A DNA stretch of 64,000 nt, taken from contig DASRGI010000263.1 of NCBI GenBank assembly GCA_035651095.1, positions 1,080 through 65,079 on the forward strand, written 5' to 3'. Each line of letters begins with the position of its first letter. The stretch's first letter is position 1. The position numbers and the translations under genes are program-made. This document shows positions 19,575-36,756 of the stretch, one piece after another. The notes beneath the pieces are model-generated. The model was not told where the DNA came from. It made no database searches and saw only the letters and a list, made by a program, of their open reading frames with translations. This DNA comes from Acidimicrobiales bacterium. GTDB lineage: Bacteria > Actinomycetota > Acidimicrobiia > Acidimicrobiales > JAUTXP01.

Positions 19575-19724
19575 GGCCCGGACTGTACGACCAACGTTGC
19601 CCGCCCGGCCCCGCCACCAAACGGCCGACGGGCCACAGAGGCTTACGGCCGTCGAGCGAAACACCCCGGGGACTCACCGAGCGATCCCGAGGTGTTTGCG
19701 AACACGGCCGTCAGGAGGGCGATG

Positions 19725-21170: not shown

Positions 21171-21675
21171 TCAACTTGCCGGCCAGCTACATCGGTGAGG
21201 GTGTGGGAGCCGTCCTCCCCGGCGGTGCTGGCCAGGTTCGAGGGAACCAGCAGCGTCCCTCTTGTGGCTCCAGGTCGGTTCGACCGGCCGTATGCCTGCG
21301 GCAGGTGCTGTCAGACCTAACCAACTGCGGTGCGGACCGTGAATGACGACTTGTGGGGAACGGTCTCACGGGCTGGCGTGCCCTGTCGGAAAAACCTCGA
21401 CACGCTGACCGATCGGCGACGTAGTAACAGGATGCAAGCGTTGCGCGCGTCCCTGCCTGGTGACGCCCGGAAGGACAGCATGACGAAGACCGCAGCTGCC
21501 GAGATCGACTGCACCCGAGGGTGCGATCGATGCTCGCTCCAAGATCACTCCAAGAACGCTCATGGTCGAACGCCATGCACCCGATGCACTCGGGAGCCGC
21601 GTTCCCTCCAGTTCACCAGTAGCCAGTCCCGTTGGTAACGCAGTTCTCAGCCACACTCAAACAATTCGAACTGAC

Positions 21676-24384
21676 ATGAAACTCATACGCGCAACCCATC
21701 CGCGGTCCCAACGTCTGGCCAGAATTGTCCGGATTATCACGTGCGGAATGCTCGTCGCTTCTGTCGCGGCGGGGATGGTAGCCCCGCGTGCGCGGGCTGC
21801 TGACGATGTCACCACCGTGGTTGGGACGTGGCACCCGACGAACCTACCTCCAGGCGTGGCGCCAGATCAGTTCTATCAAGAGGCGCAGTTGTATCCCGAC
21901 GTGGGCGGGCGGCGGCTCTACGTGTACGGAGCGGCGACCCACTGGTTTGCGGCCTATGACCTCGATTCGCTCCAACCCATCGGCGCGGGCCTCAAGCTCC
22001 CGGACACGGCGACTGCTTTCTACGTGGACCCTGTCGGGGGGCGAATATTCGTCGGGTTTCAGAACGACCTTACCCAGCAGGTCCATCTTGACGAGTTCGT
22101 GACGCGATCATCTGGCGTCGTCCGGGTGGCCACGATCGATCTCACGGCCCAGCTGTTGGCGCGCGCCATTGTCGGCATGTACCACGAATTGGGTACGGAT
22201 CTGATGTGGGTCTTGGCGAACCGGTCAGCCACGGGTAGCGGGGCTCCGGCCGTAGCGATCGGGGAGTTGGGGCTGCACGACTTCGAGACGGGTGGGAGCC
22301 ATGCTTGGCACTGGCAGACCCCGAAGGAACTGCCAGAATGTCAGTTCACGCTGCACAACAACCTGAATGTGGCTGCCGGCCTCGGCTACGAGCCCACGCA
22401 TCATTCGCTGTACTTCGGTTGTGGTAACCCGCCCCTGCAAGCTCCCGAGAAGGTGGCGCGAGGCGTCGGGCGCCTCGAGTTGAATATCGCTCCCGATGGT
22501 CAATCGACGACCCCCGGCAACATGGCCATGTTCTCTCACAGCGGCGATTTCGCCCAAGCCGACTCCCTCTTCGACCCCGTCTCTCGTCGATTGACGCTCT
22601 CGGCCTATGCGTCCGTGACGCAGGGTTCCACCGTCTTTGTCTTCGACACGGTCGGGGAAAAGTATGTGGGAGGCATCACGGCGGGAAGTCTGGCCATTGC
22701 GCAAGTCGGCCTCGATGCCGTTCACGGGCGGTTCTACGGAATGAGTCAGTGGCCGTACACCGGGCTCATTCTTGCCGATGTTCGAGCCACGCCCTCCACG
22801 CAGGGTGCATCTGTCCCAGCATTGGCAAAACACAACGGACACCAGCCAGCTGGGACCCATCTCGCATCTGACCCTCAGACTGGGCGCCTCTTCCTCAAGT
22901 ATTCCGCTGACACCGACTTTGTCATTGTTCGCGATAACCTGCCCCAGTTTGTGCAAGTTCCGCCGCTTGATGTCGATGCCAATACGGTTAATGTGCCTGA
23001 AGAGGCAGGCAAGACGCTGGCGACGTACTCCGGGGCATCCCAAGCATTCGGATCCCGTGTGCGACAGATCGGTGGTGCCGACGCCATCTTCGTCAATACT
23101 TCGGGAGTTACTGCACCGCTGCCCGTGGGCCCAGGCACCCGACAGTATGTCGGGGCCTACTTGAACCGCCTCCAGCTCGGCAACAACGAGTCCACTGCCT
23201 CGGCCATTGGTGCGGATACGGACACGGAGAACACGAAGGGCGATCTCAACAAGGCTGCAGCGCCACCGCCCCCTTCACCCCCCGACGGGACGCCGCCGCC
23301 ACCCCAGCCACCCGCAGGGACGCCACCTCCGCCCGTTGCTACGCCCAATCCATTTGAACCTGCAGCCGGCTGGCCGTACCTCGAAGCCTTGTGTTCCGAT
23401 TTCGGGGACACGCCTGGTGTCGATTCGCATCCTGGAGCGTCAGTGTCCTGCCACGCCTCTGAACACGTTGCCCAGGCCAGCGCCGCGGCGGGGTCTACTG
23501 ACGTTGGAAGCGCCGGTGTGGTGACGGTCGGGGTCAATGCCAGTTCGTTCACCTCCCATCTCACCCTCGATCCGGACCACGGTGTTGTCACCGAGGTGAG
23601 CGCGTCAAGTCGAGGAATCAGCTTGTTGAACGGCCGCCTTCACATCGGTGAAGTGGCGTCAGTGGCCCGAGCGCAAGCGCGTGGGCGACCGGGGACCACC
23701 GCGTCGTCGTGGTCGCGCACGGTCAAGAACGTGACTTTGGATGGCAATACGCTCTGCGGCGACCCGTGTGATATCCAAGCTCTCGCCGCGCAACTCAACG
23801 GCAGCTTGGTTGGCCTGGCGAAGGTTGACTTTCCTACGCCTCAGCCGAACACTGCCTCGAAAGGTGGGTACGAGGCGACCGTCCGAATCGACCCTTTGGA
23901 GCATGTCGAGGATGTCCTCGTGAACGAACAGCCTGATGACCGCATCGAGGTTCCCGGCATGGTCGTGACCATTTTCCAGGATGGGTTCAAGCCATCGCGG
24001 ACGATCGTTGACTTTGCGGGGGTCGAGGCCGAGGCTCGATATGGCATCTCACTCGTTGAGCAGCCTGGAGGCTCCCTGTCAGGTGGACCCCTGCCTGTTG
24101 CGGATTTGTTGGCCGGCAACGTTCCAGGAGTTGGTCAGGGTCCGATCTTCGGGATCGAGCCGGGCGCGGCGGGCGATCTGGGGCCGGCCGCGCCTCTGGG
24201 CCGGCCCCGCCAACTTGCGTTGGGAAGCCCTCTCAATGGCCCAGGGCGCATTCTCATGAACGGTCTCCGACGTGTGGCGGCGCTGCTGCCTATCTGGGCG
24301 TTGCTCCTGATCCCGATCTACCTCTCCGCCCGACGGTGGCTCTTACTGCAACGCGGTGGCCTTATTCTTGGAGGGAAGCCTTGA
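21676..24384 (+). CDS. large exported/anchored hypothetical protein (902 aa) with proline-rich linker and C-terminal TM helix
   Basis: ATG 21676 in track ORF 21562..24384. N-terminal signal/anchor IITCGMLVASVAAGMVAP, PPPPSPPDGTPPPPQPPAGTPPPP linker, C-terminal LLPIWALLLIPIYL. No family recognised. Confidence 0.7.
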   Translation: MKLIRATHPRSQRLARIVRIITCGMLVASVAAGMVAPRARAADDVTTVVGTWHPTNLPPGVAPDQFYQEAQLYPDVGGRRLYVYGAATHWFAAYDLDSLQPIGAGLKLPDTATAFYVDPVGGRIFVGFQNDLTQQVHLDEFVTRSSGVVRVATIDLTAQLLARAIVGMYHELGTDLMWVLANRSATGSGAPAVAIGELGLHDFETGGSHAWHWQTPKELPECQFTLHNNLNVAAGLGYEPTHHSLYFGCGNPPLQAPEKVARGVGRLELNIAPDGQSTTPGNMAMFSHSGDFAQADSLFDPVSRRLTLSAYASVTQGSTVFVFDTVGEKYVGGITAGSLAIAQVGLDAVHGRFYGMSQWPYTGLILADVRATPSTQGASVPALAKHNGHQPAGTHLASDPQTGRLFLKYSADTDFVIVRDNLPQFVQVPPLDVDANTVNVPEEAGKTLATYSGASQAFGSRVRQIGGADAIFVNTSGVTAPLPVGPGTRQYVGAYLNRLQLGNNESTASAIGADTDTENTKGDLNKAAAPPPPSPPDGTPPPPQPPAGTPPPPVATPNPFEPAAGWPYLEALCSDFGDTPGVDSHPGASVSCHASEHVAQASAAAGSTDVGSAGVVTVGVNASSFTSHLTLDPDHGVVTEVSASSRGISLLNGRLHIGEVASVARAQARGRPGTTASSWSRTVKNVTLDGNTLCGDPCDIQALAAQLNGSLVGLAKVDFPTPQPNTASKGGYEATVRIDPLEHVEDVLVNEQPDDRIEVPGMVVTIFQDGFKPSRTIVDFAGVEAEARYGISLVEQPGGSLSGGPLPVADLLAGNVPGVGQGPIFGIEPGAAGDLGPAAPLGRPRQLALGSPLNGPGRILMNGLRRVAALLPIWALLLIPIYLSARRWLLLQRGGLILGGKP

Positions 24385-25907
24385 AACGCAGTGACCCTGC
24401 AGTGGGGAGCGCCCTGTTGACGCTCGGGGTGATAGTCGCAGCTGGTGTGCTTCTGTCGCTGGTGACCATCGTTCCTTCAGGAAGTGGCTCCGGTCAGGGC
24501 GGCGCCCAGATTGCAGCAGCAGGCGACGCGGGTGGGCCGGGTGCGCAGGACGCGGGCACCGGTCCGGCAACGAATGGTGCGACGTCTCAGGCAGCTGGAT
24601 CTGGCGCCACCCAGGCGGCAGCCGGCGCAGCCGCCGGTGGACAAGCGTCGGGCATCGCCAAGTCGACCCCTGTCAGCCTTTCCTGCGCAGCAGGCTCCAA
24701 TGGAGGCAACACTGATGTCGGCGTGTCGGCATCGTCCATCAAACTTGCCGCTACGGTCGTGGCCGATGGCCCGGGCTCGAGCTTCCTGGGACCGGTTCGG
24801 ACCGGAATCACCACCGTGCTCGACAAGATAAACAATAGCGGTGGAGTCTGCGGACGGCGGCTCGACCTCACGCTCCGGAACGACTCGTGGGACGCGGCCC
24901 GGGGTAAGCAATACATTCAGAATTTCGTGGAGGGCGACAAGGTATTTGCTCTCGCCGTGGTGCCCTCGTCGGAGGGTCTTCGAGAAGCTGACGCCTACAT
25001 CCAGCAACAGAAGGTTCCGGTTGTCGGGACCGACGGCATGCTGATCCATCAGTATAAGAATCCCTGGATCTGGCCTGTTGCCACGTCGACCATCTCAACC
25101 ATGCACGCCATGGCGAAGAATGCTGCCGATCGGGGAAGCAAGCGTTTCGGAATCGTCTTTGACGCCCAGTACCACTTTGGAGTGGAAGGCGCCTTCGCAT
25201 TCAACCAGGCTGTCAAGCGCCTTACGGGCGACAACATTCCAGGCTTCGACTCTCAGTTGAAGAGCTGCACTGGGCGCTTCTGCGGGATCCAGCCGGGCAA
25301 ACCGAGTTACAGCGGTGATGCGAAGCAGTTCAATGACGCGTGCTTCTCCGGCGCGGGCACCTGCGACTTTATCGCCTACCTGCTCGAGCCCGATACGGCA
25401 CTCAGTTTTCTTCGAGAGGGCCGGCCCGCTAACCCCCAGATCGGATTTGCCGGCGCACAACCTCTCTTTACCCGTCCGTTCGCGGAAAATTGCCAGCGGC
25501 CATGTGACGGCATGTGGGTGTGGACCGGTTACAACCCGCCCCTTGAATCTCTGGCGAGTGATCCCGACGTCGCACGTTACGTCAACGAAGTGCATCAGGA
25601 GTCTGCCTCGGCGGACACGACCAACCAATTCCTTGAGGGCGGCTACATCGGCATGTCGCTCATGGTCCAAGCACTCCAGAAGGTCGGTCCAGCGCTCACG
25701 CGTCAAAACCTCAAGAATGTCTTGGACTCGATGACCTTCTCGAGCGGCTTGACCAGTCCGCTCGCGTGGAGGCCCGGGAACCACTTCGCGAATGTATCTG
25801 CCCAAGCGTTCGAGATTCAGTACAAACAGTCGTTCAACGGTTGGCGGAAGGCGACGTCCTTCATTGCCGACCCCTGGGTTGGCGAAGATATCCCGAGTGG
25901 AGAGTAG
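24381..25907 (+). CDS. ABC transporter substrate-binding protein (LivJ / branched-chain amino-acid type) with N-terminal TM anchor and Ala/Gly/Gln-rich linker
   Basis: TTG 24381 overlaps the upstream TGA. GGAGGG sits 5 nt upstream. An alternative ATG 24336 is in frame. The body resembles type I periplasmic binding proteins. Confidence 0.75.
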   Translation: MKRSDPAVGSALLTLGVIVAAGVLLSLVTIVPSGSGSGQGGAQIAAAGDAGGPGAQDAGTGPATNGATSQAAGSGATQAAAGAAAGGQASGIAKSTPVSLSCAAGSNGGNTDVGVSASSIKLAATVVADGPGSSFLGPVRTGITTVLDKINNSGGVCGRRLDLTLRNDSWDAARGKQYIQNFVEGDKVFALAVVPSSEGLREADAYIQQQKVPVVGTDGMLIHQYKNPWIWPVATSTISTMHAMAKNAADRGSKRFGIVFDAQYHFGVEGAFAFNQAVKRLTGDNIPGFDSQLKSCTGRFCGIQPGKPSYSGDAKQFNDACFSGAGTCDFIAYLLEPDTALSFLREGRPANPQIGFAGAQPLFTRPFAENCQRPCDGMWVWTGYNPPLESLASDPDVARYVNEVHQESASADTTNQFLEGGYIGMSLMVQALQKVGPALTRQNLKNVLDSMTFSSGLTSPLAWRPGNHFANVSAQAFEIQYKQSFNGWRKATSFIADPWVGEDIPSGE

Positions 25908-25913
25908 AGAGCG

Positions 25914-28900
25914 GTGCTCGTAAAATTTGGTCTCTATCTGTTGCTCTCGCTCCCGCTCATCGGCGCCTATGCGATGCTCGCCATCGGAATCGTCGTTGTC
26001 TTCCGAGCGTCGAAGGTTCTGAACCTCGCCCATGGTGCCATGGCAATGCTGCCGGCCTATATCACGTATGAGGCTTCAAAGCGGGGCATTTCCATGTTCT
26101 TCGCCGTACCCTTGGGTGTCGGCGCCGGGGCTCTCTTGGGGATGGCGACGGAACGGCTGTTCGTCCGGCCTCTTGCACGGCAGGGGGCCACCGCTCAGAC
26201 GGTTGGCACCGTTGCCGTGTACGGACTCGTTGTGGCCGGGGCGGCCCAGATTTGGGGCTCGGGCTCAAAAACTGCTCCGCTCGTATTCCCGGCCGGGGGT
26301 GTGCACGTGGCAGGCGCACTGCTTCGATGGGGCCAGCTCGGACTGTTCACGGTCGCGCTCGCGAGCGCGGCCGGATTCTATGCCTTGTTCCGCTTTACTG
26401 GCATCGGCCTCGCCATGCGTGGTGCCGCCGAGAACCCGAGGGCCGCCGGCCTGATGGGAATCAACCCGGAGCGAATGGCCCGATTCGCGTGGATGCTCGG
26501 AGGATCGCTGGCGGCCCTTGCCGGCATTCTGTTGGCGTCCGTCACCAACCTGCAGCCGTACTCACTGTCGCTGCAAATGTTGCCCGCGTTCGTGGCGGCA
26601 CTCGTGGGCGGCTTTGGCAGCCTTCTCGGGGCCCTCGCGGGCGCATTCGCGGTCGGTGTGGCTGAGGGCATGGTTCCGGCGTTCAGCCTCGTCCCGGGAA
26701 TTCGTCGTATCGCAACCCAAGTCGGCATGCCACAACTCGTGCTTACGGTGCTCGCTCTCGGAGTCATGTACTACCGAGGTAGCAAGTTCTCGGTCGGGGA
26801 CAGCAGGGCTGCGTTGGCAGGAGACGCCGATGCGACGCCGATTCATACGGCCTTCGACACCTCAAGGCTCCCTCGAAGGGGCGGAAGCAAGCGTCTATTG
26901 AGGTATGCCATACTGCTCTCATTGCTCGCGTGGCCCTTCTTTGGCGTCCCGAGTTTTCTACATCCCCTGGATACGTACTCGCTCCTGGGCGACGCGATAC
27001 TCGCCGGTGGCTACTTCATCGCCGCGTCGTCGATCGTCATGTTGACCGGCTGGGTGGGCCAGATCTCGTTGTCTCAAGCGGCATTCGTCGGTATCAGTGC
27101 ATTCAGTTCTGCCTTGCTCTCACGACATTACGGGATCGGCTTCCCATTGAGCTTGATCGTCGGGGCCTGCATGTCGGCTTGTGCGTCGGCAGTCCTCGGA
27201 GTCGTGGCGCTTCGTGTCCGAGGCCTGTACTTGGCGGTGGCAACGCTGATCTTTGCCTGGATGGCCGACGAGTACCTATTCATAGTGCCCTGGTTTGCCG
27301 GCAAGGGCGGGAGTGCAGCGATCAAGAACCATCCCGTCGGAGTGCACGGCGCGTTTCCGTATTTCGACTTTAGCGATCGGCGAACGTTCTATTTTGTAAT
27401 GATCGCGGCCGCGTCGTCGGTTTTATTTGGATTGCTCAATCTACGCGACTCAAAGACCGGGCGAGCGTTCTTCGCGATCCGAGGTTCGGAGTCCGCCGCA
27501 GCCTCACTCGGTATTGATGTCATCCGATATAAGCTCGTCGCGTTCGCAACGGCGGGCTTTGTGGCTGGCATTGCTGGGAACCTCATTCTGACTCACCAGG
27601 ATACGGTTGTTCCCGACCAGTTTTCCCTGAAGGTCTCCCTCCTCTTTCTAGCGATTGCTGTGGTTGGTGGCCTACGAAGCCTCCACGGCACCGTGGCGGC
27701 GTCGGTTGTCTTTGCTGCTCTGTCCGAGCTGTTCTTTCGTGTCCCAGCTCTCGGAGAGTACCTTCAACTTGTCTCGGCGCTGCTCCTTGCTGTGATCTTG
27801 TTGGTGTATCCCGGGGGCCTCGCGGCTGTGCCGCGGGATTTGCGGCGTGTGTGGCGTCGGATCGACGTGCTGCTGCAGCATAAGAAGACCGTCCCCATAC
27901 GAGATAGGGCCATAGCGTTCTGTCGACAGATGGCGAAGGGAGCCGAGGCGACGGAGGCGCTGATTGCCGAGCGGGTAGTCGCCGTACGCCAGGCGATTGG
28001 CCGGCAGATCGCCCGGGTGCCCGTGTTCCAGCGGGTGCCAGCCCTGGCGACGGTGGGAGCAGGCCCAACGGAGCGCAGGCTCACCGGCTTGGTGGTGCCC
28101 ATCGAGGATGCGCTTGCCGGACCCCTGGGACCCGGCGCGGACGCTGTCGAAGGTGAGAAGGACGTCGACGCGGACGCGCTTGACGTGGGTGGCGCGAATG
28201 GCGAATTGGAAGGTGGCCGGAAGTTGCACAGCATGCATGACCTGGGTCTTGACCTGAAGACGTCATACCAGGCTCGCGGTACGGTCATTCGGGCACAAAA
28301 CATCACGGTGCGCTTCGGCGGACTTACCGCTGTCAACGATGTGTCGCTGGAGGTCCGAGCCGGGCAGATTGTTGGCCTCATCGGGCCGAACGGCGCAGGG
28401 AAGACCACCCTGTTCAACGCCATCTCGGGGCTGAACAGTCCGACGTCGGGAAGCGTCAGCCTCTTCGGCGAAGATGTCACTGTCCTACCCGTCCACGAAC
28501 GTGCCGCGCGGGGCTTGGGCCGCACCTTCCAGGTGATTCAGCTCTTCCCCGAACTTACCGTCTTCGAGAACCTCCTCGTGGCAACCCACTTGCACAACCC
28601 CTCCACTTTGCTGTCGAACGTGGTGGTGACGGCGAAATCTGTACGGGCTGAGCTGGCCGCCGAGGAGACGTGTCGGCGCGTGGTGCGCTTTCTCGGTCTC
28701 GAGGAGATTGCTGACCGCCCGGTCGCCGGACTGCCGTTTGGCACGCTGCGCATGATCGAGATCGGCAGGGCGTTGGTTACTGGGGCGCCTGCACTCATGC
28801 TCGACGAACCCGCGTCTGGGCTCGACAATAGAGAGACCGACAAGCTGACTGAACTCCTTCTGTTCGTGCGCAACGAGCTGAACCTCTCGATTCTGCTCAT

Positions 28901-29090
28901 CGAGCACGACGTCCGCATGGTCACCGGCGTAAGCGACTACATGTACGTGCTGAACCGAGGGGTCATGCTAGCGGAGGGCAAGCCGGCCGATATCCAACGA
29001 GACCCTGCTGTTGTCGCGGCCTACTTGGGTGAGCCGATCTCGGATCGAGGCAGCGAGACCGATGTTGCCGAGGCGGAGGTAATGGCCTGA
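25914..29090 (+). CDS. fused ABC importer: LivH-like permease + LivM-like permease + LivG-like ATPase in one 1058-aa ORF
   Basis: No stop across the whole ORF. N-terminal permease LPLIGAYAMLAIG...NLAHGA. Second permease GWVGQISLSQAAFVGI. Walker A GPNGAGKTT, signature PASGLDNRE (degenerate LSGGQ position), Walker B LMLDEPASGLD. Confidence 0.85.
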   Translation: MLVKFGLYLLLSLPLIGAYAMLAIGIVVVFRASKVLNLAHGAMAMLPAYITYEASKRGISMFFAVPLGVGAGALLGMATERLFVRPLARQGATAQTVGTVAVYGLVVAGAAQIWGSGSKTAPLVFPAGGVHVAGALLRWGQLGLFTVALASAAGFYALFRFTGIGLAMRGAAENPRAAGLMGINPERMARFAWMLGGSLAALAGILLASVTNLQPYSLSLQMLPAFVAALVGGFGSLLGALAGAFAVGVAEGMVPAFSLVPGIRRIATQVGMPQLVLTVLALGVMYYRGSKFSVGDSRAALAGDADATPIHTAFDTSRLPRRGGSKRLLRYAILLSLLAWPFFGVPSFLHPLDTYSLLGDAILAGGYFIAASSIVMLTGWVGQISLSQAAFVGISAFSSALLSRHYGIGFPLSLIVGACMSACASAVLGVVALRVRGLYLAVATLIFAWMADEYLFIVPWFAGKGGSAAIKNHPVGVHGAFPYFDFSDRRTFYFVMIAAASSVLFGLLNLRDSKTGRAFFAIRGSESAAASLGIDVIRYKLVAFATAGFVAGIAGNLILTHQDTVVPDQFSLKVSLLFLAIAVVGGLRSLHGTVAASVVFAALSELFFRVPALGEYLQLVSALLLAVILLVYPGGLAAVPRDLRRVWRRIDVLLQHKKTVPIRDRAIAFCRQMAKGAEATEALIAERVVAVRQAIGRQIARVPVFQRVPALATVGAGPTERRLTGLVVPIEDALAGPLGPGADAVEGEKDVDADALDVGGANGELEGGRKLHSMHDLGLDLKTSYQARGTVIRAQNITVRFGGLTAVNDVSLEVRAGQIVGLIGPNGAGKTTLFNAISGLNSPTSGSVSLFGEDVTVLPVHERAARGLGRTFQVIQLFPELTVFENLLVATHLHNPSTLLSNVVVTAKSVRAELAAEETCRRVVRFLGLEEIADRPVAGLPFGTLRMIEIGRALVTGAPALMLDEPASGLDNRETDKLTELLLFVRNELNLSILLIEHDVRMVTGVSDYMYVLNRGVMLAEGKPADIQRDPAVVAAYLGEPISDRGSETDVAEAEVMA

Positions 29091-29827
29091 TGGCTCTCCT
29101 GGAGGCAGAGAACCTCGCCGTCTTCTACGGGCCTGTCCAGGCACTCCGGGGTGTAACTCTGCACGTCAACGAAGGCGAAATGGTGGCGCTTGTCGGCGCC
29201 AACGGGGCAGGAAAGACCACCACGCTCCGGACGCTTTCCGGGATGCTGGCGCCGAGGATGGGGACGATCACGTTCGATGGGGCACGAATCGACGGGGTGC
29301 CTCCGTTCGGTGTCGTCGAACGGGGCTTGGCCCATGTGCCCGAGGGCCGCGAACTGTTCTCGGCGATGACCGTAGAGGAGAACCTTCGCCTGGGGTTCTA
29401 TTCGAAGCGGAAGGCCAAGGACTTTGAGGCGCGCGCAGAGGAGGTCATGGGCCACTTCCCCATCCTTCAGGAGCGGGCGTCGCAGGCCGCAGGCACGCTG
29501 TCGGGTGGGGAGCAGCAAATGCTTGTGGTGGCTCGAGCATTGATGTCCGCGCCGCGGCTCTTGCTGGTCGACGAGCTCTCCCTCGGCTTGGCCCCGAAGA
29601 TCGTGACTCAGTTGTTCGACATCTTGCGCGCCGTCAACGAGCGAGGAACGGCCGTGGTGCTGGTAGAGCAGTTCGTGCACATGGCCCTGGGGAACACCGA
29701 CCGCGCGTATGTGCTCCAGAAGGGCGAGGTCGTGGTTGAGGGCCGCAGCCAGGACCTGCTTCACGACGAGTCCCTTGTGGCCTCGTACCTCGGCGAAGCA
29801 GAGATGGCGTCACACAACAGCAGGTGA
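29090..29827 (+). CDS. ABC transporter ATP-binding protein (LivF-like)
   Basis: 245 aa. Motifs GANGAGKTT, LSGGEQQML, LLLVDELSLGL. The ATG overlaps the upstream TGA by 1 nt. Confidence 0.9.
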   Translation: MALLEAENLAVFYGPVQALRGVTLHVNEGEMVALVGANGAGKTTTLRTLSGMLAPRMGTITFDGARIDGVPPFGVVERGLAHVPEGRELFSAMTVEENLRLGFYSKRKAKDFEARAEEVMGHFPILQERASQAAGTLSGGEQQMLVVARALMSAPRLLLVDELSLGLAPKIVTQLFDILRAVNERGTAVVLVEQFVHMALGNTDRAYVLQKGEVVVEGRSQDLLHDESLVASYLGEAEMASHNSR

Positions 29828-30233: not shown

Positions 30234-30462
30234 TGGTACGCCCGACGGGATTCGAACCCGCACCTTGCGGAGTACAAGTCCGCTGCTCTTAAGGCGGCAG
30301 TACGTAGCGCTCGGCAAGAGTAACGGCATGGCTAAATCCGTGCCATTGTGGCGTTCCTACACCGGGTGTTCCGTAGCACCGAGTGCAGGACCGTCCTCCC
30401 GATCCTGACTTGCCTTCACAACTACGCCTACGCCGCCCGTTGACCGATTGAGCTACAGGCGC
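30234..30462 (-). tRNA. tRNA-Thr(UGU)-like gene interrupted by a 152-nt insertion in the D loop (possibly a pseudogene)
   Basis: Minus sense reads GCGCCTG-TA-GCTC-AATCGGTCA-[152 nt]-GAGC-A-GCGGA-CTTGTAC-TCCGC-AAGGT-GCGGG-TTCGAAT-CCCGT-CGGGCGT-A-CCA. All four stems pair; the acceptor has 5 Watson-Crick and 2 G-U pairs. Confidence 0.6.
30289..30440 (-). other. 152-nt structured insertion inside the tRNA D loop (MITE-like element, small intron or RNA domain; nature unknown)
   Basis: The ends form an imperfect helix of about 14 bp (GGCGGC-GTA-GG-CGTAG with CTACG-TAC-T-GCCGCC). Internal hairpins: GGCAAG/CTTGCC, CAGGA/TCCTG, ATGGC/GCCAT. Flanked by TCAA and TTAA. Confidence 0.5.
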
Positions 30463-30931
30463 ATGTCTTACTGCAATTGGTGGGCCGCTCCGGTCGGCCC
30501 CGCTGGTGGATAGGTCCTCGATGCTCCTCACCGGAAGTATCGCTGTGTCTGCTCTGTACTACGTCGCCGCCGTGCTGTCGTGTCACGAATTGTTGTGGCG
30601 GCTCGGAGTTGAGCGGGTGCTTGGCATCGCTGGCCGATAGGCGACCGCAACTTGCCCCGGTCGGACATGACCATGCTGTTGACGCGATCCGCTCCGGCGG
30701 CCACATCGATGCGATCCGCAAGGCGTCGAGCACGTGCTCCGGGCGATCATCGACACAAAGGCGACCGAGCCCATGGAGCCGTGGACGATCGCACGCGCAC
30801 GGCCTGGTCAATGGCACCCGACGACCGGCTGCTGAGGACAAAGGCCGGATGACCCCTCGGAGGATCGCAGCCGACGGCACTTCTTCGCCACGACGCTGGG
30901 CGTCATCCTCGCACTCCGGCAGGACACGCCC

Positions 30932-32206
30932 TCACCCCCGAACGACAGGGTGCTCCATTGGGGGCGCGAATGTCTTCGCCCGGTGGAGACCCACGAAGCG
31001 GCCATAGGCATCGAGGTCGAGGTGGCCTGCGCCGGTGACCAGGGCCACGATCGACCGACGTGCCCCGCCCGCCTCCTCCGCCTTCCGGATGGCGGCCAGG
31101 AGCGTGTAGGTGGACTCTGGCGAAATCACGAGGCCTTGGAGACGTGCCAGGCGCAGGCCCGCCTGCATTGCCTCGCCCTCGTCATAGGCCTCGGCCTGCA
31201 CGCGACCGACGTGGACCTGGGCCGAAACCAGCGGGGAAGCAGCGTGGTAGCGCAGGCCGGAGGCGTGCATCGACGGGGGCCGAAAGTCGTAACCCAGTGA
31301 GTACATCTTGATCGGCGCCGCATCGCCCTCTCCGTCGGGATAATCGAAGTCGTACTTCCCGGCGGTGAGGGTGGGTATCGAGGTGGACTCCACAGCCACG
31401 ATCTCCGAACTCGGGTAGGCGTCGAGCAACGGAAACGCGAACCCGCCGAACGAGCTCCCGCCACCCACACAGCCGATGGCAACGTCGGGTTCAACACCGG
31501 CAGCCCGAAGCTGTGCAACCGTCTCCAGCCCGATCAAGCTGGCGTAGAGGAGGGTGAAGTCGAGCAGGCTGCCGGCGATGTTCATGCCTCCTGGGCGCGA
31601 CCGCAGCACATCGAACACCTCAGAGGTAGCAATGGCGATGGAGCCACTGTGCTCGCCTCGCTCGAGGAATCGGCGGCCTGCGGCGGTGGTGTCCGAAGGA
31701 GACGGGTGCACGACTGCGCCGTAGGCCTCCATCAACCGGCGCCGGAGCGGCTTGTCGTCGTGGCTGCTGCGGACCATGAAGATCTCGCACTCCAGCCCAG
31801 CGATGCAGCTGGCCAATGCCGCCGCCACACCGGTCTGGCCGGCGCCCGTCTCGGTGACGACGCTGTTCCGCCCTTCCTGGGCTCCGTAGTACGCCTGGGG
31901 AAGCGCGGAGGTGATCTTGAAGCTTCCGTTGGGGAGCAGGTCCTCGCGCTTCAGCCAGATCTCGCAGTTGGTACCGAGGTCACGCTCCAGGGCGGTAGCC
32001 CGCACGAGGGGGGTTGGCCGACCGACCTCGGCATAGCGTTGCCGGAGTCCGTCCGGGATGGCGATGGTGCGGTCGGTGGATTGTCCATGGGCGATGACCT
32101 GCTCGGGGTAGAGCCAACCGGCGTCGTCCGGGCGTTCATACTGATAGATCTCAGCTAACTGTTCGCGGGCGAAAAGCGACCGGGGGTTGAACCAGCGGTC
32201 GCTCAC
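30932..32206 (-). CDS. TrpB-like pyridoxal-phosphate-dependent enzyme (tryptophan synthase beta-like, type 2 family)
   Basis: Track ORF 30932..32251. GTG 32206 overlaps the upstream TGA (GTGA). PLP lysine context KREDLLPNGSFKITSAL. Phosphate loop GCVGGGSSFGG. Confidence 0.8.
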   Translation of the reverse strand: MSDRWFNPRSLFAREQLAEIYQYERPDDAGWLYPEQVIAHGQSTDRTIAIPDGLRQRYAEVGRPTPLVRATALERDLGTNCEIWLKREDLLPNGSFKITSALPQAYYGAQEGRNSVVTETGAGQTGVAAALASCIAGLECEIFMVRSSHDDKPLRRRLMEAYGAVVHPSPSDTTAAGRRFLERGEHSGSIAIATSEVFDVLRSRPGGMNIAGSLLDFTLLYASLIGLETVAQLRAAGVEPDVAIGCVGGGSSFGGFAFPLLDAYPSSEIVAVESTSIPTLTAGKYDFDYPDGEGDAAPIKMYSLGYDFRPPSMHASGLRYHAASPLVSAQVHVGRVQAEAYDEGEAMQAGLRLARLQGLVISPESTYTLLAAIRKAEEAGGARRSIVALVTGAGHLDLDAYGRFVGLHRAKTFAPPMEHPVVRG

Positions 32207-34893
32207 GTCGGCTCCTCGGGGCTGCAGGCGTCGCGGCATTGTTCGATGCAAAAGGCGTGCAACTCGTCGGTGGCCGCCCCGACAGTTCGGAACCTCCAGT
32301 TGTAGATCGTCTCGACCACATCTGTGGCGGCCGTCACTCGATCGAGGATCGGCTCACCCTCAACCGTGGTGACCAGGGCGCCGGCTTCCTCGGCGATGGT
32401 GGCGGCGGCCAGCACGTCGACTGTCTTGGCCGTATTGCTGAGGTCAACGAAAAGGCCAATGTTCCCGGTCGCCAAACAGCAGAGATCGAGAGCCGCACAG
32501 CCCATGGCCCGGAAGCTCGAGACCGCCCCAGCGACGGCCGACAGGGCGCCCAGTTCGGGCGTGGTACGCGAGAGGCCAACGAAGATGACATCCATCGCGC
32601 TGAGCTGCTTGGGTGCTCCCGCCGTTATCCGGCGACCGTTGCGGAACGCCCCTCTGCCGCGGATAGCCGAGTACTGCGTGCCGGTCGCCAGGTTGAGGAC
32701 GAGGCCTCCCAATACCGAGCCGTTGTCGGCAAGGATGGCCAGGGACAGGGCGTAATAAGACAGGCCCATCTTGTAGTTCTTGGTCCCATCGATCGGGTCG
32801 AGGACGACCGTGCATCCCTCGACGCCAAGGGGGATCACTCCCGACTCTTCGCTCAGCACCTGACGCACGCCGCCATGCCGGGCGAGGATGGCGACCACCT
32901 CGCCTTCGAGGACGCTGTCAATCTCGAAGCAGCGTTCGCCGAAGGCGTTATGGATGGCGCTCGGAATGCCCAGTCGAGGGGGCTCCGCCGCGAGACGAAC
33001 GAGCCGGTCGCCCTCCTTGGACACGGCGGTGATGAGGCTGGCGGTGGCGGCGCTCGCCTGGCGGCCGGGCGGCTCGCCCTGGGAGCGGAGGGAGGCGACG
33101 GGTTTGGCTGGCTCCAATCCCACGAGCCTCCGGGACGCCGACTCGGTGTCGGTTGTGACCCCTAAGGTGCTGCCGCCTCCGCTGAGGAAGCCAATGGCAT
33201 GGGCGAGGTCGATGTTCAGCAGGTGAAGGGCGCGGTGCATAACGATCCGAGTGGCCCGTCGAGTGTCGGGATCGAGGCCGCCGAGGCGGTCGCACCGGGT
33301 GACGTTGGCCGAGAGGTCCTCCAGGTGCCGCAGGAGCGCCGCCGGATTGCGCTCGTTAGCGCTTCGGCACACGACGTCGGGGAAGGCGTTCAGTGCGAAG
33401 ATCACGTCACTGGCTGCCTCGAAGGCTTCCGGATCGTCGGGACCGATGCCACCGACCTCACTCTCGAGGTCGACCACGGTCTTTACGAGCTGACAGAACG
33501 GTCGGCGCTGCTGCTCCCACAGGGCGCTCTCGTCGTACTCGACGGCGCGCTTACGAGGTTTGGCCAGAAGGGCATACTTCAGAAATGCCACGCCGAGTTG
33601 TTCGCACGTCTCCGAGAGACTGGTGTTGACCGGTCGGCCCTCAGCGCGAAGCAGTTCGATGAAGCAGTGGTAGAAGTGGTTCAGGGCATCGTCGGCTCGG
33701 ATGCCACTGCCCTGTCGTGACGACATGGCACCTGAGGGCGTGACCACCATGCCATGGCAAATGTTCTCCTGGGGCCAATCCAGCCCCACCGCCTTGAGCA
33801 GCTCGCCGTACATGATGGCCCCGGACTCCCACTGATCGCCGAAGAGCACGATATCGGTGTCGTAATGTGCCTGCGCGTGGCGGTCGTAGTCGACACCCAG
33901 CCATTGGGTGTAGACGACAGGCGTACCGTCCGAGCGCACAACGGTGAGTTCTCCATTCTCGATGTCGGGGATGTTCATGTACACCGAGCCATCCTCCCGT
34001 CGATGAAGCTGGCGCTTCTCCACCGCCTTGGCGATGATGTCCAGCCCGGTGGCGAGCGAAGCCGACTCGAGCAGGGCGAGATCGAGATGGGTTCCGATGC
34101 GCTCGTACGTAGCCTTTATGCCTTCCTCGCACCATTCGGTGATTCGGAAGATGAGCTGACGCGTCCCCTCGTTGCCCATATGTGCCCGGCGAAGGAGGGT
34201 GACGGCTTCCTCGTCCATCTTGGCCCGCTTCTCAGCCTGGTGGAATCCGACGTAGAAGTCGGCCACGAAGTGGTCGCCCTTCATCCCGACCGACGACGGA
34301 CTTCCCCCGTCACCGGCGTGCAGGTAGCCAACCGCGGCCTGGCAAATATGAATGCCCCAGTCGCTGAGGACTGAGATGCGCGTTACGTCAGACCCTTGTG
34401 ACTCCAAAAGCCGACTGATTGCCATGCCTAGGAAGTTGGTACGCAGGTGGCCAACGTGGAGAGCCTTGTTGGCGTTCGGATTTGAGAATTTCAGGGCGAT
34501 AGTCTGCGTGACAGGGGGTGTTGCTTGTCCGTACGAGCTGCCTGCGGCAATCACGCGGGGCACAACATGGGTGCGGAGCCAGTGGTAGTCAGGACGCACG
34601 TAGATCGACGGCGGGACCGGCACCGCAGCGGCGATTCCCGGCAACGAGTTCATCTGATCAGCCAGCTCGCGGAGCCAATTACGGTCGCGAGCCCGCTCGG
34701 GCACAAGGTCGCGCATGTCGAGTTTGAACGGGCCGGGCCGACCGGGACTCGACGGAACCTGTGTCACCGTCACCGGGACGCCTGCACGACCAGTGAGGTC
34801 GGCCACGGCGGAACCGAGCACGGCATTGGCCGGTCCCGGAACGGAACGGGCGCTCCCCGGCCCGGTCGATACAGCATTACTCATCGGGTCCAA
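32203..34893 (-). CDS. arginyl-tRNA synthetase-like protein fused to a C-terminal inositol monophosphatase-family domain (896 aa)
   Basis: ArgRS signatures FSNPNANKALHVGHLRTNFLG (HIGH) and GAMSSRQGSGI (KMSKS position), plus a DALR-like region. C-terminal IMPase motifs LSEESGV, VVLDPIDGTKNY, VDVLAAATIAEEAGA. The track start 34893 is TTG; ATG 34884 is an alternative. Confidence 0.8.
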   Translation of the reverse strand: MDPMSNAVSTGPGSARSVPGPANAVLGSAVADLTGRAGVPVTVTQVPSSPGRPGPFKLDMRDLVPERARDRNWLRELADQMNSLPGIAAAVPVPPSIYVRPDYHWLRTHVVPRVIAAGSSYGQATPPVTQTIALKFSNPNANKALHVGHLRTNFLGMAISRLLESQGSDVTRISVLSDWGIHICQAAVGYLHAGDGGSPSSVGMKGDHFVADFYVGFHQAEKRAKMDEEAVTLLRRAHMGNEGTRQLIFRITEWCEEGIKATYERIGTHLDLALLESASLATGLDIIAKAVEKRQLHRREDGSVYMNIPDIENGELTVVRSDGTPVVYTQWLGVDYDRHAQAHYDTDIVLFGDQWESGAIMYGELLKAVGLDWPQENICHGMVVTPSGAMSSRQGSGIRADDALNHFYHCFIELLRAEGRPVNTSLSETCEQLGVAFLKYALLAKPRKRAVEYDESALWEQQRRPFCQLVKTVVDLESEVGGIGPDDPEAFEAASDVIFALNAFPDVVCRSANERNPAALLRHLEDLSANVTRCDRLGGLDPDTRRATRIVMHRALHLLNIDLAHAIGFLSGGGSTLGVTTDTESASRRLVGLEPAKPVASLRSQGEPPGRQASAATASLITAVSKEGDRLVRLAAEPPRLGIPSAIHNAFGERCFEIDSVLEGEVVAILARHGGVRQVLSEESGVIPLGVEGCTVVLDPIDGTKNYKMGLSYYALSLAILADNGSVLGGLVLNLATGTQYSAIRGRGAFRNGRRITAGAPKQLSAMDVIFVGLSRTTPELGALSAVAGAVSSFRAMGCAALDLCCLATGNIGLFVDLSNTAKTVDVLAAATIAEEAGALVTTVEGEPILDRVTAATDVVETIYNWRFRTVGAATDELHAFCIEQCRDACSPEEPT

Positions 34894-35345
34894 CCCCCCA
34901 TGGCGGACATGCCCCGGCTACAGGCGCTCTGCGTCGAAAGTGTACAGAGGGATTCGACGCCTGGCCATTTGGCTATACGCGATCCATTCTGGCGTGGTTG
35001 TGTATGAGATTCTCCTCCAGATCTCGGGGTCGACGCTCCTTTTACTGCGCGGATCTGACCGGGGTGTGAGGCTTCGCTCCGCCAACTTGACGGGTGTCCA
35101 GGCCGGGTAAGTTCGGAGGATGAACCCGACACGCGCCGCGCTGGCCGGATTCGCGGCATGGCGGGCTGGGTGTGGAAGACCTTGGCAGCGAGCCGACACC
35201 TTGGCGGCATGCTGCGTGGACCAGATCGTGGCCTAGCACCGGCTCGCGTCACCACCAGCCGACCGAAGCGATGAACACCTCATCAAGCGGCCCAACTAGG
35301 ACCTATTCGCCGGTGTCATACGCGGCCGAAATTCGATGCGCCCGT

Positions 35346-36386
35346 TTATCGCGAGCTACGAGGGTCGGTGAGCCACGCCCGCAGCCCGGCGTGATACCGC
35401 TCGACGTCCACCTCCATTGCGATTGCCCATCTATTGGGGGAGATGCCATCTGTTGCCTTCGGATAGTCCGTCGGGCCCGGGCGACTGTCCCAGATCGTTT
35501 TGCGGGGAAGGCTGCGGTCGGCCACCGTGGCGCCCCACGCGATGTCGCCGCCCAGATCCACGGCCAGAGGCATGACTTCCCAGTCGCAGATGGAGGGGTC
35601 GTGTACGCACCACATGGCGAGCACATCATGGGCCGGCCATACGCCTGGCCGGCCAGTTTCGAGCAGGCCGGTAGGCCAGACTGCAGAGAAGATGCGGTGC
35701 ACGAGCGCGGCGCCCGCCAGTGAGGACCTTCCCAGCGCCGCAAGCTCGACCTGTGTCAGGGCACTGGGCCGGGTAACGTCGAGTGGGACGAGACGGGGAG
35801 GTTGGCCACCGCCGAGGACGCCCGGTACCCCGAACGCCTCTACCACTTGGGCTGCTGCGGCCGGGTCGTGAGCAACGTTCGACTCGGCCGCGGGCGTGAC
35901 GTTTCCTCCGACGGCAATAGCGCCGCCCATGACCACGAGGCCAGCCAGGTTTCCCGGGAGCGCAGGATCGAGCGCCAAGGCGGCGGCGACGGTGGTGAGA
36001 GGAGCGAGCGCGACGAGGGTGAGTTCGCCCGGCGCTTCGGCGGCCCGGCGCACGATGGCCTCCGCTGCTGGCTCAGGGTCGATTGGAGAGGACGGATCCT
36101 CCAGCCCTTCGATGTTGCCAAGGCCATCACGACCCATGACCTCGTCCGCGGGGAACTCGAACGGGGCAGGTGCTGACGGTCCCTCTGCGCCGAGGTATAC
36201 AGGAACGCGTGCGCCGGCGGCGTCGAGCACGACACGCGTGTTGCGGGCGACCTGCTCGCGCCGGCAGTTCCCCCATGTGGCCACGACGCCCTCGAGTACC
36301 AAAGCCGGGTGATTGGCGGCAAGGAACAGGGCACCGGCGTCGTCCGTTCCCGTGTCGACGTCGAGCAGGACGCGTCGTGGACTCAC
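35346..36386 (-). CDS. nucleoside hydrolase (IUNH family)
   Basis: Last 346 aa of track ORF 35346..36590, from GTG 36386. N-terminal DVDTGTDDAGAL is the DxDxxxDD motif. Confidence 0.8.
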   Translation of the reverse strand: MSPRRVLLDVDTGTDDAGALFLAANHPALVLEGVVATWGNCRREQVARNTRVVLDAAGARVPVYLGAEGPSAPAPFEFPADEVMGRDGLGNIEGLEDPSSPIDPEPAAEAIVRRAAEAPGELTLVALAPLTTVAAALALDPALPGNLAGLVVMGGAIAVGGNVTPAAESNVAHDPAAAAQVVEAFGVPGVLGGGQPPRLVPLDVTRPSALTQVELAALGRSSLAGAALVHRIFSAVWPTGLLETGRPGVWPAHDVLAMWCVHDPSICDWEVMPLAVDLGGDIAWGATVADRSLPRKTIWDSRPGPTDYPKATDGISPNRWAIAMEVDVERYHAGLRAWLTDPRSSR

Positions 36387-36756
36387 GATGCCGGGATTCG
36401 TCTCGCGCTCACCGATCGAGGTCCCGCCACGCCGTCTCGGGAGACGGCAGCGATGGCCCTTGCCAGCGCCCGGACTGCATGACGCACCGTTCGCATGGAT
36501 CCGGACACTACGCCCAGGCAGTCGGCTTCCACTTTTCGCGTGGGCCGTGAGCAAGCGTCGGGATACGGGAAGTCCGGCGATGCCGGGCATGACTCACTGC
36601 CCCCCGCCACTCTGACGGCCTGGGGCGGCGCCACGACATGGTGGGTTCCGCGATGTCGGATGGGGACTGCGATCGAGTTCGTAAGGTGCATCCCGCCCTC
36701 ACTGTCTTAGCCGCACGTCGTATCGCACGTTCCCCTGGACCATGGCGAGCCGCTAT

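Follow-up and report, generated by a model that had tools for sequence, protein, structure and literature searches.

The stretch of DNA analyzed here, referred to as the window, comprises 64,000 nucleotides (nt) of an Acidimicrobiales metagenome-assembled genome (MAG; assembly GCA_035651095.1, contig DASRGI010000263.1, positions 1,080 to 65,079). Its minus strand carries an accessory cassette of four parts, arranged in the order IU-type nucleoside hydrolase gene, gene for a fusion of an arginyl-tRNA synthetase (ArgRS)-like protein with an inositol monophosphatase (IMPase)-family domain, gene for a TrpB-like pyridoxal-phosphate (PLP) enzyme, and a 226-nt tRNA-like RNA (Table 1). An initial annotation, made from the sequence of the window, had described the two central open reading frames (ORFs) as a two-gene operon; both ORFs are present and the operon is real, but the conserved unit also includes the upstream nucleoside hydrolase and the downstream RNA. 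The fusion had been given as 896 amino acids (aa), a length that holds only from a TTG at 34893; translation most probably begins at the ATG at 34884, which is preceded by GGGGGG as a G-rich ribosome-binding site and yields 893 aa. The overlap described between its TGA and the GTG of the TrpB-like gene is present as GTGA, with the TrpB-like ORF running from 32206, and couples the two genes translationally in the window. In public records, the fusion is HZQ29229.1, annotated as 'arginine--tRNA ligase', and the second protein is HZQ29228.1.

The four-part block is shared, with gene order and strand unchanged, by the window and three further complete metagenomic loci (L001, L002, and L016), in which the 4-nt overlap and the pairing of the fusion with the TrpB-like gene are retained, while the genes beyond the block are unrelated on both sides. 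The fusion architecture recurs in P0002 (67% identity), P0003, P0004, a 912-aa protein of L016, and a JGI copy, P0368. The junction between synthetase and phosphatase is conserved in five independent assemblies, and the fusion is therefore genuine, as initially proposed, and not an assembly artefact. It is rare, with about five copies among 5.8 billion protein clusters. The low-GC location noted at the outset was also confirmed, the GC content of the cassette being 65% as compared with 70–76% in the flanking DNA.

Table 1. Positions of the features discussed in the text (window coordinates unless a locus is named).
Feature	Position	Strand	Remarks
IU-type nucleoside hydrolase	35346-36590	-	First gene of the block; PF01156
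ArgRS-like/IMPase fusion ORF	32203-34884	-	893 aa; TGA at 32203-32205
ArgRS-derived synthetase domain	33181-34851	-	aa 12-568 of the fusion
HVGH motif	34447-34458	-	aa 143-146
MSSRQG motif	33709-33726	-	aa 387-392
Pocket substitution K132	34489-34491	-	Counterpart of E. coli D118
Pocket substitution W328	33901-33903	-	Counterpart of E. coli D317
Low-complexity linker	32917-33180	-	aa 569-656; synthetase to phosphatase
IMPase-family phosphatase domain	32203-32916	-	Pfam envelope aa 657-858; up to the stop at 32203-32205
IMPase motif EESG	32839-32850	-	Catalytic motif
IMPase motif DPIDGT	32782-32799	-	Catalytic motif
IMPase motif VDVLAA	32404-32421	-	Catalytic motif
TrpB-like PLP beta-replacement enzyme	30932-32206	-	424 aa; GTG start
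Schiff-base Lys97 of GSFK	31916-31918		TrpB-like enzyme
Possible 48-aa ORF	30528-30674	-	Between TrpB-like gene and RNA; 5/6 Thr codons ACA
tRNA-like RNA gene	30237-30462	-	226 nt; downstream of the TrpB-like gene
Structured D-loop insertion	30290-30442	-	153 nt; between U20 and A21
Anticodon UGU	30274-30276	-	Window RNA
Encoded CCA	30234-30236	-	Directly 3' of the tRNA-like RNA
Pro-rich ORF	L018:962-1279	+	105 aa, acidic, repetitive, MATAQEEVVPNVSDPLETFSAPLEPLD; strong AGGAGG site
Coupled hydrazine-type operon	L009:3894-10609		
Coupled hydrazine-type operon	L018:1510-9503		
Coupled hydrazine-type operon	L003:17684-19464		
Paenibacillus polymyxa operon	L019:4215-10171		JAGGNR010000012; PurH-like, IMPase, kinase, phosphoribosyltransferase, PNP-type nucleosidase, TrpB-like, aminotransferase

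The synthetase domain of the fusion consists of an Add1-like N-domain, a Rossmann core, and a helical anticodon-binding domain. The Pfam model tRNA-synt_1d matches aa 112–448 (85.5 bits). Pfam does not detect either the Add-1 (PF03485) or the DALR (PF05746) region that had been described in the fusion, but both are seen structurally. The AlphaFold2 (AF2) model is confident over the whole domain, with a predicted local distance difference test score (pLDDT) mostly above 90, and its best Foldseek match is the yeast ArgRS–tRNA-Arg complex (1F7U_A), with 594 of 606 residues aligned and a target-normalised TM-score of 0.73; MshC and CysRS are far weaker matches. The predicted structure contains the Add1 N-domain as well as the helical anticodon-binding domain, i.e., a full ArgRS fold. 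The class I motifs HVGH and MSSRQG are in place, HIGH and MSxR motifs being conserved throughout the ArgRS-like clade, and the signatures quoted initially (FSNPNANKALHVGHL and MSSRQG for the synthetase; EESG, DPIDGT, and VDVLAA for the phosphatase) were all found in the fusion.

The substrate pocket differs from this picture of conservation. The guanidinium group of arginine is held by D118, Y313, and D317 in the E. coli enzyme, and arginine binding is lost in either D118A or D317A (PMC3956977). These residues (E148, Y347, and D351 in yeast) align to K132, V324, and W328 in the fusion, with a Tyr at 325, one residue past V324. The alignment check of the Arg-binding residues that the initial annotation had called for consequently shows their loss, both guanidinium-site acids having been replaced. 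In an exhaustive profile search of ArgRS-like proteins, followed by residue classification of the best 150 representatives, about 60 clusters displayed varied non-acidic residues at both pocket positions, whereas canonical ArgRS proteins from the same searches kept Glu or Asp at both; cluster look-ups showed the representatives of the ArgRS-like clade to be metagenomic singletons. Since the guanidinium-binding acids are replaced while the class I motifs and the fold are kept, the domain is predicted to act as a synthetase-type enzyme for which arginine is no longer the chosen substrate; its relatives in the clade probably select different substrates. The combination of Lys and Trp in the pocket would suit a planar, hydrogen-bond-accepting side chain. 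The Add1 domain of ArgRS reads A20, a nucleotide in the D-loop of tRNA-Arg (PMC3956977), by means of a Tyr/Phe–Asn/Gln pocket; the corresponding segment reads PPSIYVRPD in the fusion and GPGFINIFLD in E. coli, so that the motif appears not to be conserved, in a region where the alignment is weak. The name 'arginine-tRNA ligase', carried by HZQ29229.1 and, in JGI or NCBI records, by P0003, P0004, P0011, P0014, P0225, and P0233, is contradicted by the pocket analysis.

The RNA gene is almost invisible to standard tools. Rfam reports a lone weak tRNA match (RF00005, 30 bits) in the cassette, covering the 3' part only, and sub-threshold tRNA matches at the equivalent spot in L001 and L002; the copies score 26–30 bits, again over the 3' part. 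ARAGORN, applied to the window and seven loci, called no full RNA, its one call being a tRNA-Pro that corresponds to the 3' part of the L011 copy. A matching 5' acceptor strand, followed by U8–A9 and the 5' half of a D-stem, precedes each Rfam match by about 170 nt, and on this ground a tRNA 3' fragment of the att-site-remnant type was rejected. The complete window RNA has a 7-bp acceptor stem (GCGCCUG/CGGGCGU), a D-stem (GCUC/GAGC), a T-arm, and the discriminator base A73, and its D-loop holds a large structured insertion.

The census of this RNA comprises 11 distinct copies. Seven distinct copies each fold unaided into a cloverleaf whose D-stem closes the large extra domain, and all 21 cloverleaf pairs form in all seven (146/146 cells, as compared with 30–42% in slid controls); compensatory changes occur at four of these pairs, and the covariation score was reached by none of 500 shuffles. 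RNAalifold predicts 65 pairs for the whole RNA, 23 of them with compensatory changes, most of which lie in the insertion. The copies are 180–329 nt long, beyond the canonical tRNA size of about 70–95 nt, and the insertion accounts for 100–246 nt of this length in a loop that canonically has 4–11 nt. It is always located between U20 and A21 and folds into a base helix plus a branched rod; a long helix, a three-way junction, and an internal loop of a conserved AGUAG type are among its elements. When the insertion is removed in silico, every copy becomes a 75–76-nt tRNA that is accepted by ARAGORN and has a textbook D-arm, the window copy yielding a canonical 76-nt tRNA-Thr(UGU). The tRNA hallmarks include G18G19, the T-loop GGUUCGAAUCC, and an anticodon loop in which C32, U33, U34, and A37 are invariant and only positions 35 and 36 vary. 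The resulting anticodons are UGU (window, L012, and L006b), UAU (L001, L002, and L016), UUU (L013), and UAA (L006a and L009), and a second RNA subfamily with a different acceptor stem has the anticodon UGG (L018 and L011).

At the L001, L002, and L012 copies, a promoter-like TTGAC-N17-TAnAnT lies upstream and hairpins lie downstream; a scan for consensus promoters and terminators around the window RNA returned nothing, and this copy may therefore be co-transcribed with the operon. In neither the cassette nor the insertion did Rfam, searched at E values up to 1, report a riboswitch, T-box, group I intron, or ribozyme. A 2020 review of natural non-canonical tRNAs catalogues no type with an enlarged D-loop, and the D-loop-expanded tRNA is a putative new RNA class that current tRNA finders miss. 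Just upstream of the stand-alone UUU copy, which belongs to a Solirubrobacteraceae MAG, two direct repeats (GAAATAGCCCGATCGGCTGA) occupy L013:2365-2437.

The RNA and the ArgRS-like genes occur together across loci. In all four complete fusion loci, the RNA lies 86–469 nt after the TrpB-like gene, and stand-alone ArgRS-like relatives, with about 35% identity, have their own RNA copy in five of the seven gene clusters inspected, namely those of P0008, P0006, P0011, P0010, and P0012. The arrangement varies: P0008 is preceded by a copy at a distance of 32 nt; on the same contig, which accordingly has two paralogues and two RNAs, a second copy stands at the head of the operon that closes with P0006; a further copy is divergent from the operon containing P0011, another is upstream of P0010, and yet another is at the end of the P0012 cluster. 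In the MAG encoding P0013, the RNA copy is on a different contig, and no copy was found near P0014, whose contig stops at the gene. Both partners are very rare, the exact 5' motif of the RNA matching only 2 of 185,579 species genomes, and no integrase gene was called within 10 kb of the cassette in L001, L002, and L016. Because two such rare families are co-located, the RNA accompanies stand-alone relatives, and no integrase gene is called in these three loci, chance adjacency or the remnant of a tRNA integration site appears unlikely. Two neighbors of these genes may be recorded here: a PemK-family toxin gene with a small upstream partner (L006:10590-11261) is convergent with P0008 and abuts it, and tandem 9–13-nt units (CGTGCCCTG) at L018:1334-1413, just upstream of P0010, may be regulatory.

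The remaining enzymes of the cassette point to the supply of an unusual amino acid. The TrpB-like protein passes the NCBIfam model for TrpB-like enzymes (NF009057; 427 bits against a cut-off of 366) and falls below those for trpB proper (122 against 392) and TIGR01415 (393 against 519). It retains the Schiff-base lysine in GSFK and the Glu109 equivalent (TETGAGQ), and its initial assignment as a TrpB2-type beta-replacement enzyme with GSFK and GGGSSFGG motifs was upheld. It belongs to a subclade whose signature, GSFK / TETGAGQTG / GGGSSFGG / MHASGLRYHA, departs from the GSHK, GAGQWG, and GGGSNF of ordinary TrpB2; identity is 54–61% across the Paenibacillus and related members of the subclade and no more than 46% to ordinary TrpB2. 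Genes of the subclade always adjoin an IMPase and an enzyme that cleaves an N-glycosidic bond, and this association, together with the distinct active-site signature, suggests a nucleophile other than indole. In the window, the cleaving enzyme is the nucleoside hydrolase, which matches PF01156 with E = 2.9e-65 (221 bits) and has the metal/ribose motif DVDTGTDD from aa 77; its start may be downstream of 36590, given that homologues have 353–371 aa. Its orthologues lie directly upstream of the fusion in L001, L002, and L016, with 57–67% identity in L001 and L002.

The IMPase domain is joined to the synthetase by a linker that has no Pfam match and a pLDDT below 50 at aa 570–612 and 634–656. It matches Inositol_P (PF00459) with 105 bits against a cut-off of 27, and its EESG, DPIDGT, and VDVLAA...EEAG segments align with the motifs of solved IMPase/FBPases, while all equivalog models score it under their cut-offs. 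Its closest relative, with 45% identity and 214 bits as compared with about 70 bits for any solved IMPase, is a stand-alone IMPase in an operon of Paenibacillus polymyxa that also encodes a TrpB-like orthologue with 56% identity to the window protein. This seven-gene operon, uncharacterised although it comes from a cultured organism, probably makes a related heteroaryl-alanine, with no synthetase or RNA involved. Since the window cassette and the Paenibacillus operon share an IMPase, an N-glycosidic-bond cleaver, and a TrpB-like enzyme, the three form a recurring module. The IMPase is placed in precursor supply because its closest relative adjoins an orthologous TrpB-like gene and purine-nucleotide enzymes, and this gene context suggests a nucleotide as its substrate. 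The simplest chemistry for the module would lead from nucleotide to nucleoside, from there to the free heterocyclic base, and finally to a beta-(heteroaryl)alanine.

Elsewhere in the ArgRS-like clade, the partners are different, and all of them are enzymes that, by their predicted families, act in the synthesis or modification of amino acids. The fusion partners of clade members are a Lys/Orn N-hydroxylase (P0013), a haem-oxygenase-like oxidase (P0236), and Trp-dioxygenase-like domains (P0262, P0265, P0267, and P0268). Other members lie inside hydrazine-synthetase operons, in which the ArgRS-like genes are translationally coupled with genes for a Lys/Orn N-hydroxylase, a cupin/MetRS-like hydrazine synthetase, and a DAO-type oxidase (Table 1). 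The set of N-hydroxylase, cupin/MetRS-like protein, and DAO is described in a preprint account of the architecture as making hydrazino acids, which suggests that some clade members may handle hydrazino amino acids. The operon of P0006 contains a PALP, an ATP-grasp/lyase, a GHMP kinase, and a tRNA-deacylase homologue; tRNA deacylases mark gene clusters for non-canonical amino acids (PMC13149037).

Codon usage bears on the fate of a charged RNA. For the copies with anticodon UAU, ATA accounts for 0–1 of about 115 Ile codons in the local genes of L001, L002, and L016, and for the UAA copy at L009, TTA accounts for none of about 670 Leu codons; a codon-compensating tRNA was rejected for these loci, the cognate codons being almost unused by local genes. 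In the window, where ACA has a background frequency of about 3 per 1000 codons, the cassette genes use ACA for 9 of 93 Thr codons as compared with 8 of 463 in their neighbors, a difference that fits either reading, and codon compensation may apply to this copy. Conservation at the ACA positions of the fusion is uninformative, as the sites are mostly variable. The possible 48-aa ORF listed in Table 1 is a weak candidate that may be non-coding and is not conserved in L001, L002, and L016. The Pro-rich ORF of L018, by contrast, is convincing: located between the RNA (730–918, anticodon UGG) and the ArgRS-like gene at 1510, it uses the cognate CCA in 24 of 25 Pro codons, as compared with 10 of 197 in five neighbor genes, and this bias spans several different internal repeat units, with a GC content at third codon positions (GC3) of 0.47 as compared with 0.79–0.88. 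It stands alone, no cognate-codon-rich ORF having been found in L001, L002, L016, L006, L009, or L011.

Based on these observations, we propose, with a probability of roughly 0.55, that the cassette encodes a dedicated synthetase and tRNA pair together with the biosynthesis of its amino acid. The gene linkage and the pocket change are observed; the substrate and the charging would be as follows. The IMPase domain would dephosphorylate a nucleotide, and the nucleoside hydrolase would free its heterocyclic base, which the TrpB-like enzyme would couple to the aminoacrylate derived from serine or O-phosphoserine to give a beta-(heteroaryl)alanine. The synthetase, with its pocket rebuilt around Lys132 and Trp328, would then activate this new amino acid and esterify it to the 3' end of the RNA encoded beside it. 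The 153-nt domain may serve as a private identity element, positioned as it is at D-loop position 20, which Add1 reads in normal tRNA-Arg. The retained class I motifs and fold, together with the dependence of canonical ArgRS on its tRNA even in amino-acid activation (PMC2034488), are counted in favor of the proposal. The general idea of the initial annotation, i.e., a PLP enzyme making a non-proteinogenic amino acid that a ligase activates, is supported by this proposal, and of the acceptors it had considered, 'an RNA' looks correct.

Several observations weigh against the proposal. The RNA copies of L012 and L013/L014 have no ArgRS-like gene in the surrounding 8–9 kb; conversely, no RNA was found within 7 kb downstream of the truncated fusion locus L015, nor near the ArgRS-like genes of L003 and L004. 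The Paenibacillus operon has neither synthetase nor RNA, which implies that the amino acid can have other fates. Within the cassette, the AF2 model of the IMPase domain is of low confidence owing to a shallow alignment and was not used, and a nucleotide as the substrate of this domain is suggested by gene context. The RNA body (G1, C2–G71, G35, U36, and A73) could presumably be read by ThrRS as well.

A bolder form of the dedicated-pair proposal holds that the ArgRS-derived enzymes and D-loop-expanded tRNAs are natural orthogonal pairs that insert non-canonical amino acids at host-rare sense codons during ribosomal translation (ACA in the window; AUA, UUA, AAA, and CCA in its relatives), the insertion being excised or tolerated. 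Conservation of the anticodon loop, the locally unused cognate codons, the CCA-rich ORF of L018, and the lack of an aminoacyl-tRNA consumer (we know of no cassette protein family with this function) all hint at such use. ACA and CCA are not truly free codons, however, and unless it is cut away, a domain of 100–250 nt located at the tRNA elbow would hardly be compatible with the ribosome. Hairpin-fused tRNAs usually lose translational activity (PMC7590224). Apart from the weak 48-aa candidate, no counterpart of the L018 ORF was seen next to the window cassette. Ribosomal use is, on balance, a tentative and rather doubtful possibility.

The alternatives differ mainly in the role they leave to the RNA. 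The enzyme might be a small-molecule ligase similar to MshC, acting on a sugar, inositol, or nucleoside, with the phosphatase trimming the conjugate and the RNA at most an inherited activating cofactor, a role that is conceivable given that canonical ArgRS is one of the few synthetases to require tRNA even for amino-acid activation (PMC2034488). Paralogues of aminoacyl-tRNA synthetases (aaRSs) that act on small molecules exist, as exemplified by MshC, which is among the structural matches, and by the MetRS-like domain of hydrazine synthetases; moreover, phosphatases recur with clade members (the IMPase fusion and the His_Phos_1 genes in L003 and L004), and one relative lies among sugar-phosphate enzymes (L011). 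Such a ligase is nevertheless unlikely: the full tRNA-binding architecture is kept, MshC is matched with E of about 1e-10 as compared with 1e-29 for ArgRS, and the RNA keeps a perfect acceptor stem, the discriminator base, and, in the window, an encoded CCA, features not obviously needed by a cofactor. The analogy to MshC and inositol conjugates drawn in the initial annotation is not supported in view of this architecture and of the dedicated tRNA-like gene in the cassette. A phosphatase acting after ligation, which it had also envisaged, does not accord with a domain whose ortholog is a stand-alone enzyme in a ligase-free, precursor-type operon of Paenibacillus. It is also quite unlikely that the adjacency is a coincidence, in which an intron-containing ordinary tRNA, charged by ThrRS, would have come to lie beside the cassette through mobile-DNA insertion or codon compensation. 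The same RNA body, with anticodons UGU, UAU, UUU, and UAA, accompanies different ArgRS-like subclades in upstream, downstream, or divergent positions, with a gap of 32 nt in one instance; the two families are extremely rare and yet together, an integrase gene was not called in L001, L002, and L016, and the cognate codons ATA and TTA are nearly absent from the local genes. Furthermore, one copy with a Leu anticodon combines U73 with a short variable loop, and by the LeuRS identity rules we take this not to be a LeuRS-type tRNA. These points outweigh the textbook tRNA-Thr(UGU) that remains once the insertion is removed, the position of the cassette within a low-GC block, the higher use of ACA in the window cassette genes, and the existence of RNA copies away from any ArgRS-like gene.

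Self-protection would give the RNA a different purpose: the TrpB-like pathway would make a toxic analogue, and the diverged synthetase and the RNA would form a sink, decoy, or editing-type device that spares the normal tRNAs. Protection genes directed at tRNA are common in gene clusters for non-canonical amino acids (PMC13149037), and the P0006 operon includes a tRNA-deacylase homologue, but known protection relies on deacylases or on resistant copies with cognate specificity, whereas the cognate pocket is destroyed here; a sink would, in addition, spend ATP with no obvious benefit, and the Paenibacillus operon does without it. We consider this explanation improbable. That the protein is an arginine-tRNA ligase, housekeeping or duplicate, to which a phosphatase domain has been added, as implied by the public annotation of HZQ29229.1 and by the presence of the ArgRS fold and class I motifs, is very improbable indeed. 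The fusion scores 159.4 bits with the argS equivalog model TIGR00456, far below the cut-off of 261.65, the counterparts of D118 and D317 are Lys and Trp, and about five copies among 5.8 billion protein clusters are unlike the distribution of a housekeeping gene; the earlier view of an accessory paralogue distinct from the housekeeping argS is upheld on the same three grounds. A dedicated synthetase and tRNA pair with its own amino-acid biosynthesis remains the preferred reading.

The surroundings of the cassette provide some further observations. The low-GC block is about 21 kb long (window positions 19700–41000), with a GC content of 62–67%, as compared with 70–76% in its flanks, and a GC3 that is likewise lower. 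Besides the cassette and the transporter genes, it encodes an acyl-CoA dehydrogenase, a sigma factor, and a CheR-PAS protein; an integrase was not among the genes identified. Between the hydrolase and the fusion, a 460-nt non-coding spacer (34885–35345) without an Rfam match or a convincing ORF is present in the window only, the gap being 13–86 nt in L001, L002, and L016. Convergent with the ArgRS-like operon, a plus-strand block at 21562–29827 encodes a protein of about 940 aa without a Pfam domain, a Peripla_BP_6 binding protein, a fused Liv-type permease/ATPase, and a second ATPase. Its counterpart (24–58% protein identity) is on the minus strand of the otherwise unrelated P0006 locus (L005:13790-21866), and the block could be a shared transporter partner or mark a shared insertion hot-spot.

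Among known systems, the pyrrolysine cassette (pylT-pylS-pylBCD) is the closest in organization, in that biosynthesis genes, a dedicated synthetase, and an unusual dedicated tRNA are combined in one transferable block; this layout is also found here, with gene order conserved in four loci. PylRS, however, is a class II enzyme unrelated in sequence to the ArgRS-derived one, and tRNA-Pyl, as summarized in the 2020 review, is a small tRNA whose D-loop is reduced and which decodes a stop codon (CUA), whereas the RNA described here has a D-loop domain of 100–250 nt and sense anticodons (UGU, UAU, UUU, UAA, and UGG). The present family is, moreover, diversified, with many pockets and partner pathways, and its ribosomal use is hypothetical. 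With canonical ArgRS (TIGR00456; PDB 1F7U and 4OBY), the enzyme shares the whole-chain fold, Add1, the anticodon-binding domain, and the HIGH and MSxR motifs; it differs in the replaced guanidinium pair, the sub-cut-off score, the fused phosphatase, and the accessory distribution. MshC is likewise a class I aaRS paralogue, recruited to non-translational ligation in a pathway with phosphatases, but it lacks an anticodon-binding domain and involves no RNA, while the fusion, which matches it weakly (E about 1e-10; target-normalised TM-score about 0.6), is RNA-linked. The hydrazine synthetases (cupin plus MetRS-like; Spb40, Tri28, and PyrN) also use a class I aaRS-derived adenylating domain for non-canonical amino acids; they stem from another aaRS lineage, act without a tRNA partner on a hydroxylamine as the acyl acceptor, and are neighbors of the relatives but absent from the window. 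In having a non-standard tRNA body for special charging, the RNA resembles tRNA-Sec, allo-tRNA, and tRNA-Pyl, although none of the catalogued types has an enlarged D-loop. It resembles intron-containing tRNAs in that a canonical tRNA is left when the insertion is excised in silico. The introns of bacterial tRNAs belong to group I and lie in the anticodon loop; the insertion here is in the D-loop and has no group I match in Rfam.

No description of ArgRS-derived biosynthetic enzymes, of a D-loop-expanded RNA, or of the cassette was found in the literature searched. The main result of this work is a new family of predicted arginine-blind, ArgRS-derived enzymes that are paired with a private D-loop-expanded tRNA and with amino-acid-building enzymes. 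In practical terms, the proteins are currently mis-annotated as arginine-tRNA ligase, and the RNA class is missed by tRNA finders. To our knowledge, selenocysteine and pyrrolysine are the only two natural additions to the 20-amino-acid code, and in only one of the two cases are biosynthesis, synthetase, and tRNA combined in a transferable package. The locus points to a diversified family of such packages, with about 60 clusters built on the ArgRS scaffold and an uncatalogued tRNA architecture. Should the ribosome use the RNA, nature would have expanded the genetic code through an entire family of such systems, in each of which the genes that make the amino acid are included; should a non-ribosomal process draw on the charged RNA, we would know of no earlier example of a dedicated tRNA-like carrier in specialised metabolism. 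In either case, the family would provide new enzyme/RNA pairs for engineering.

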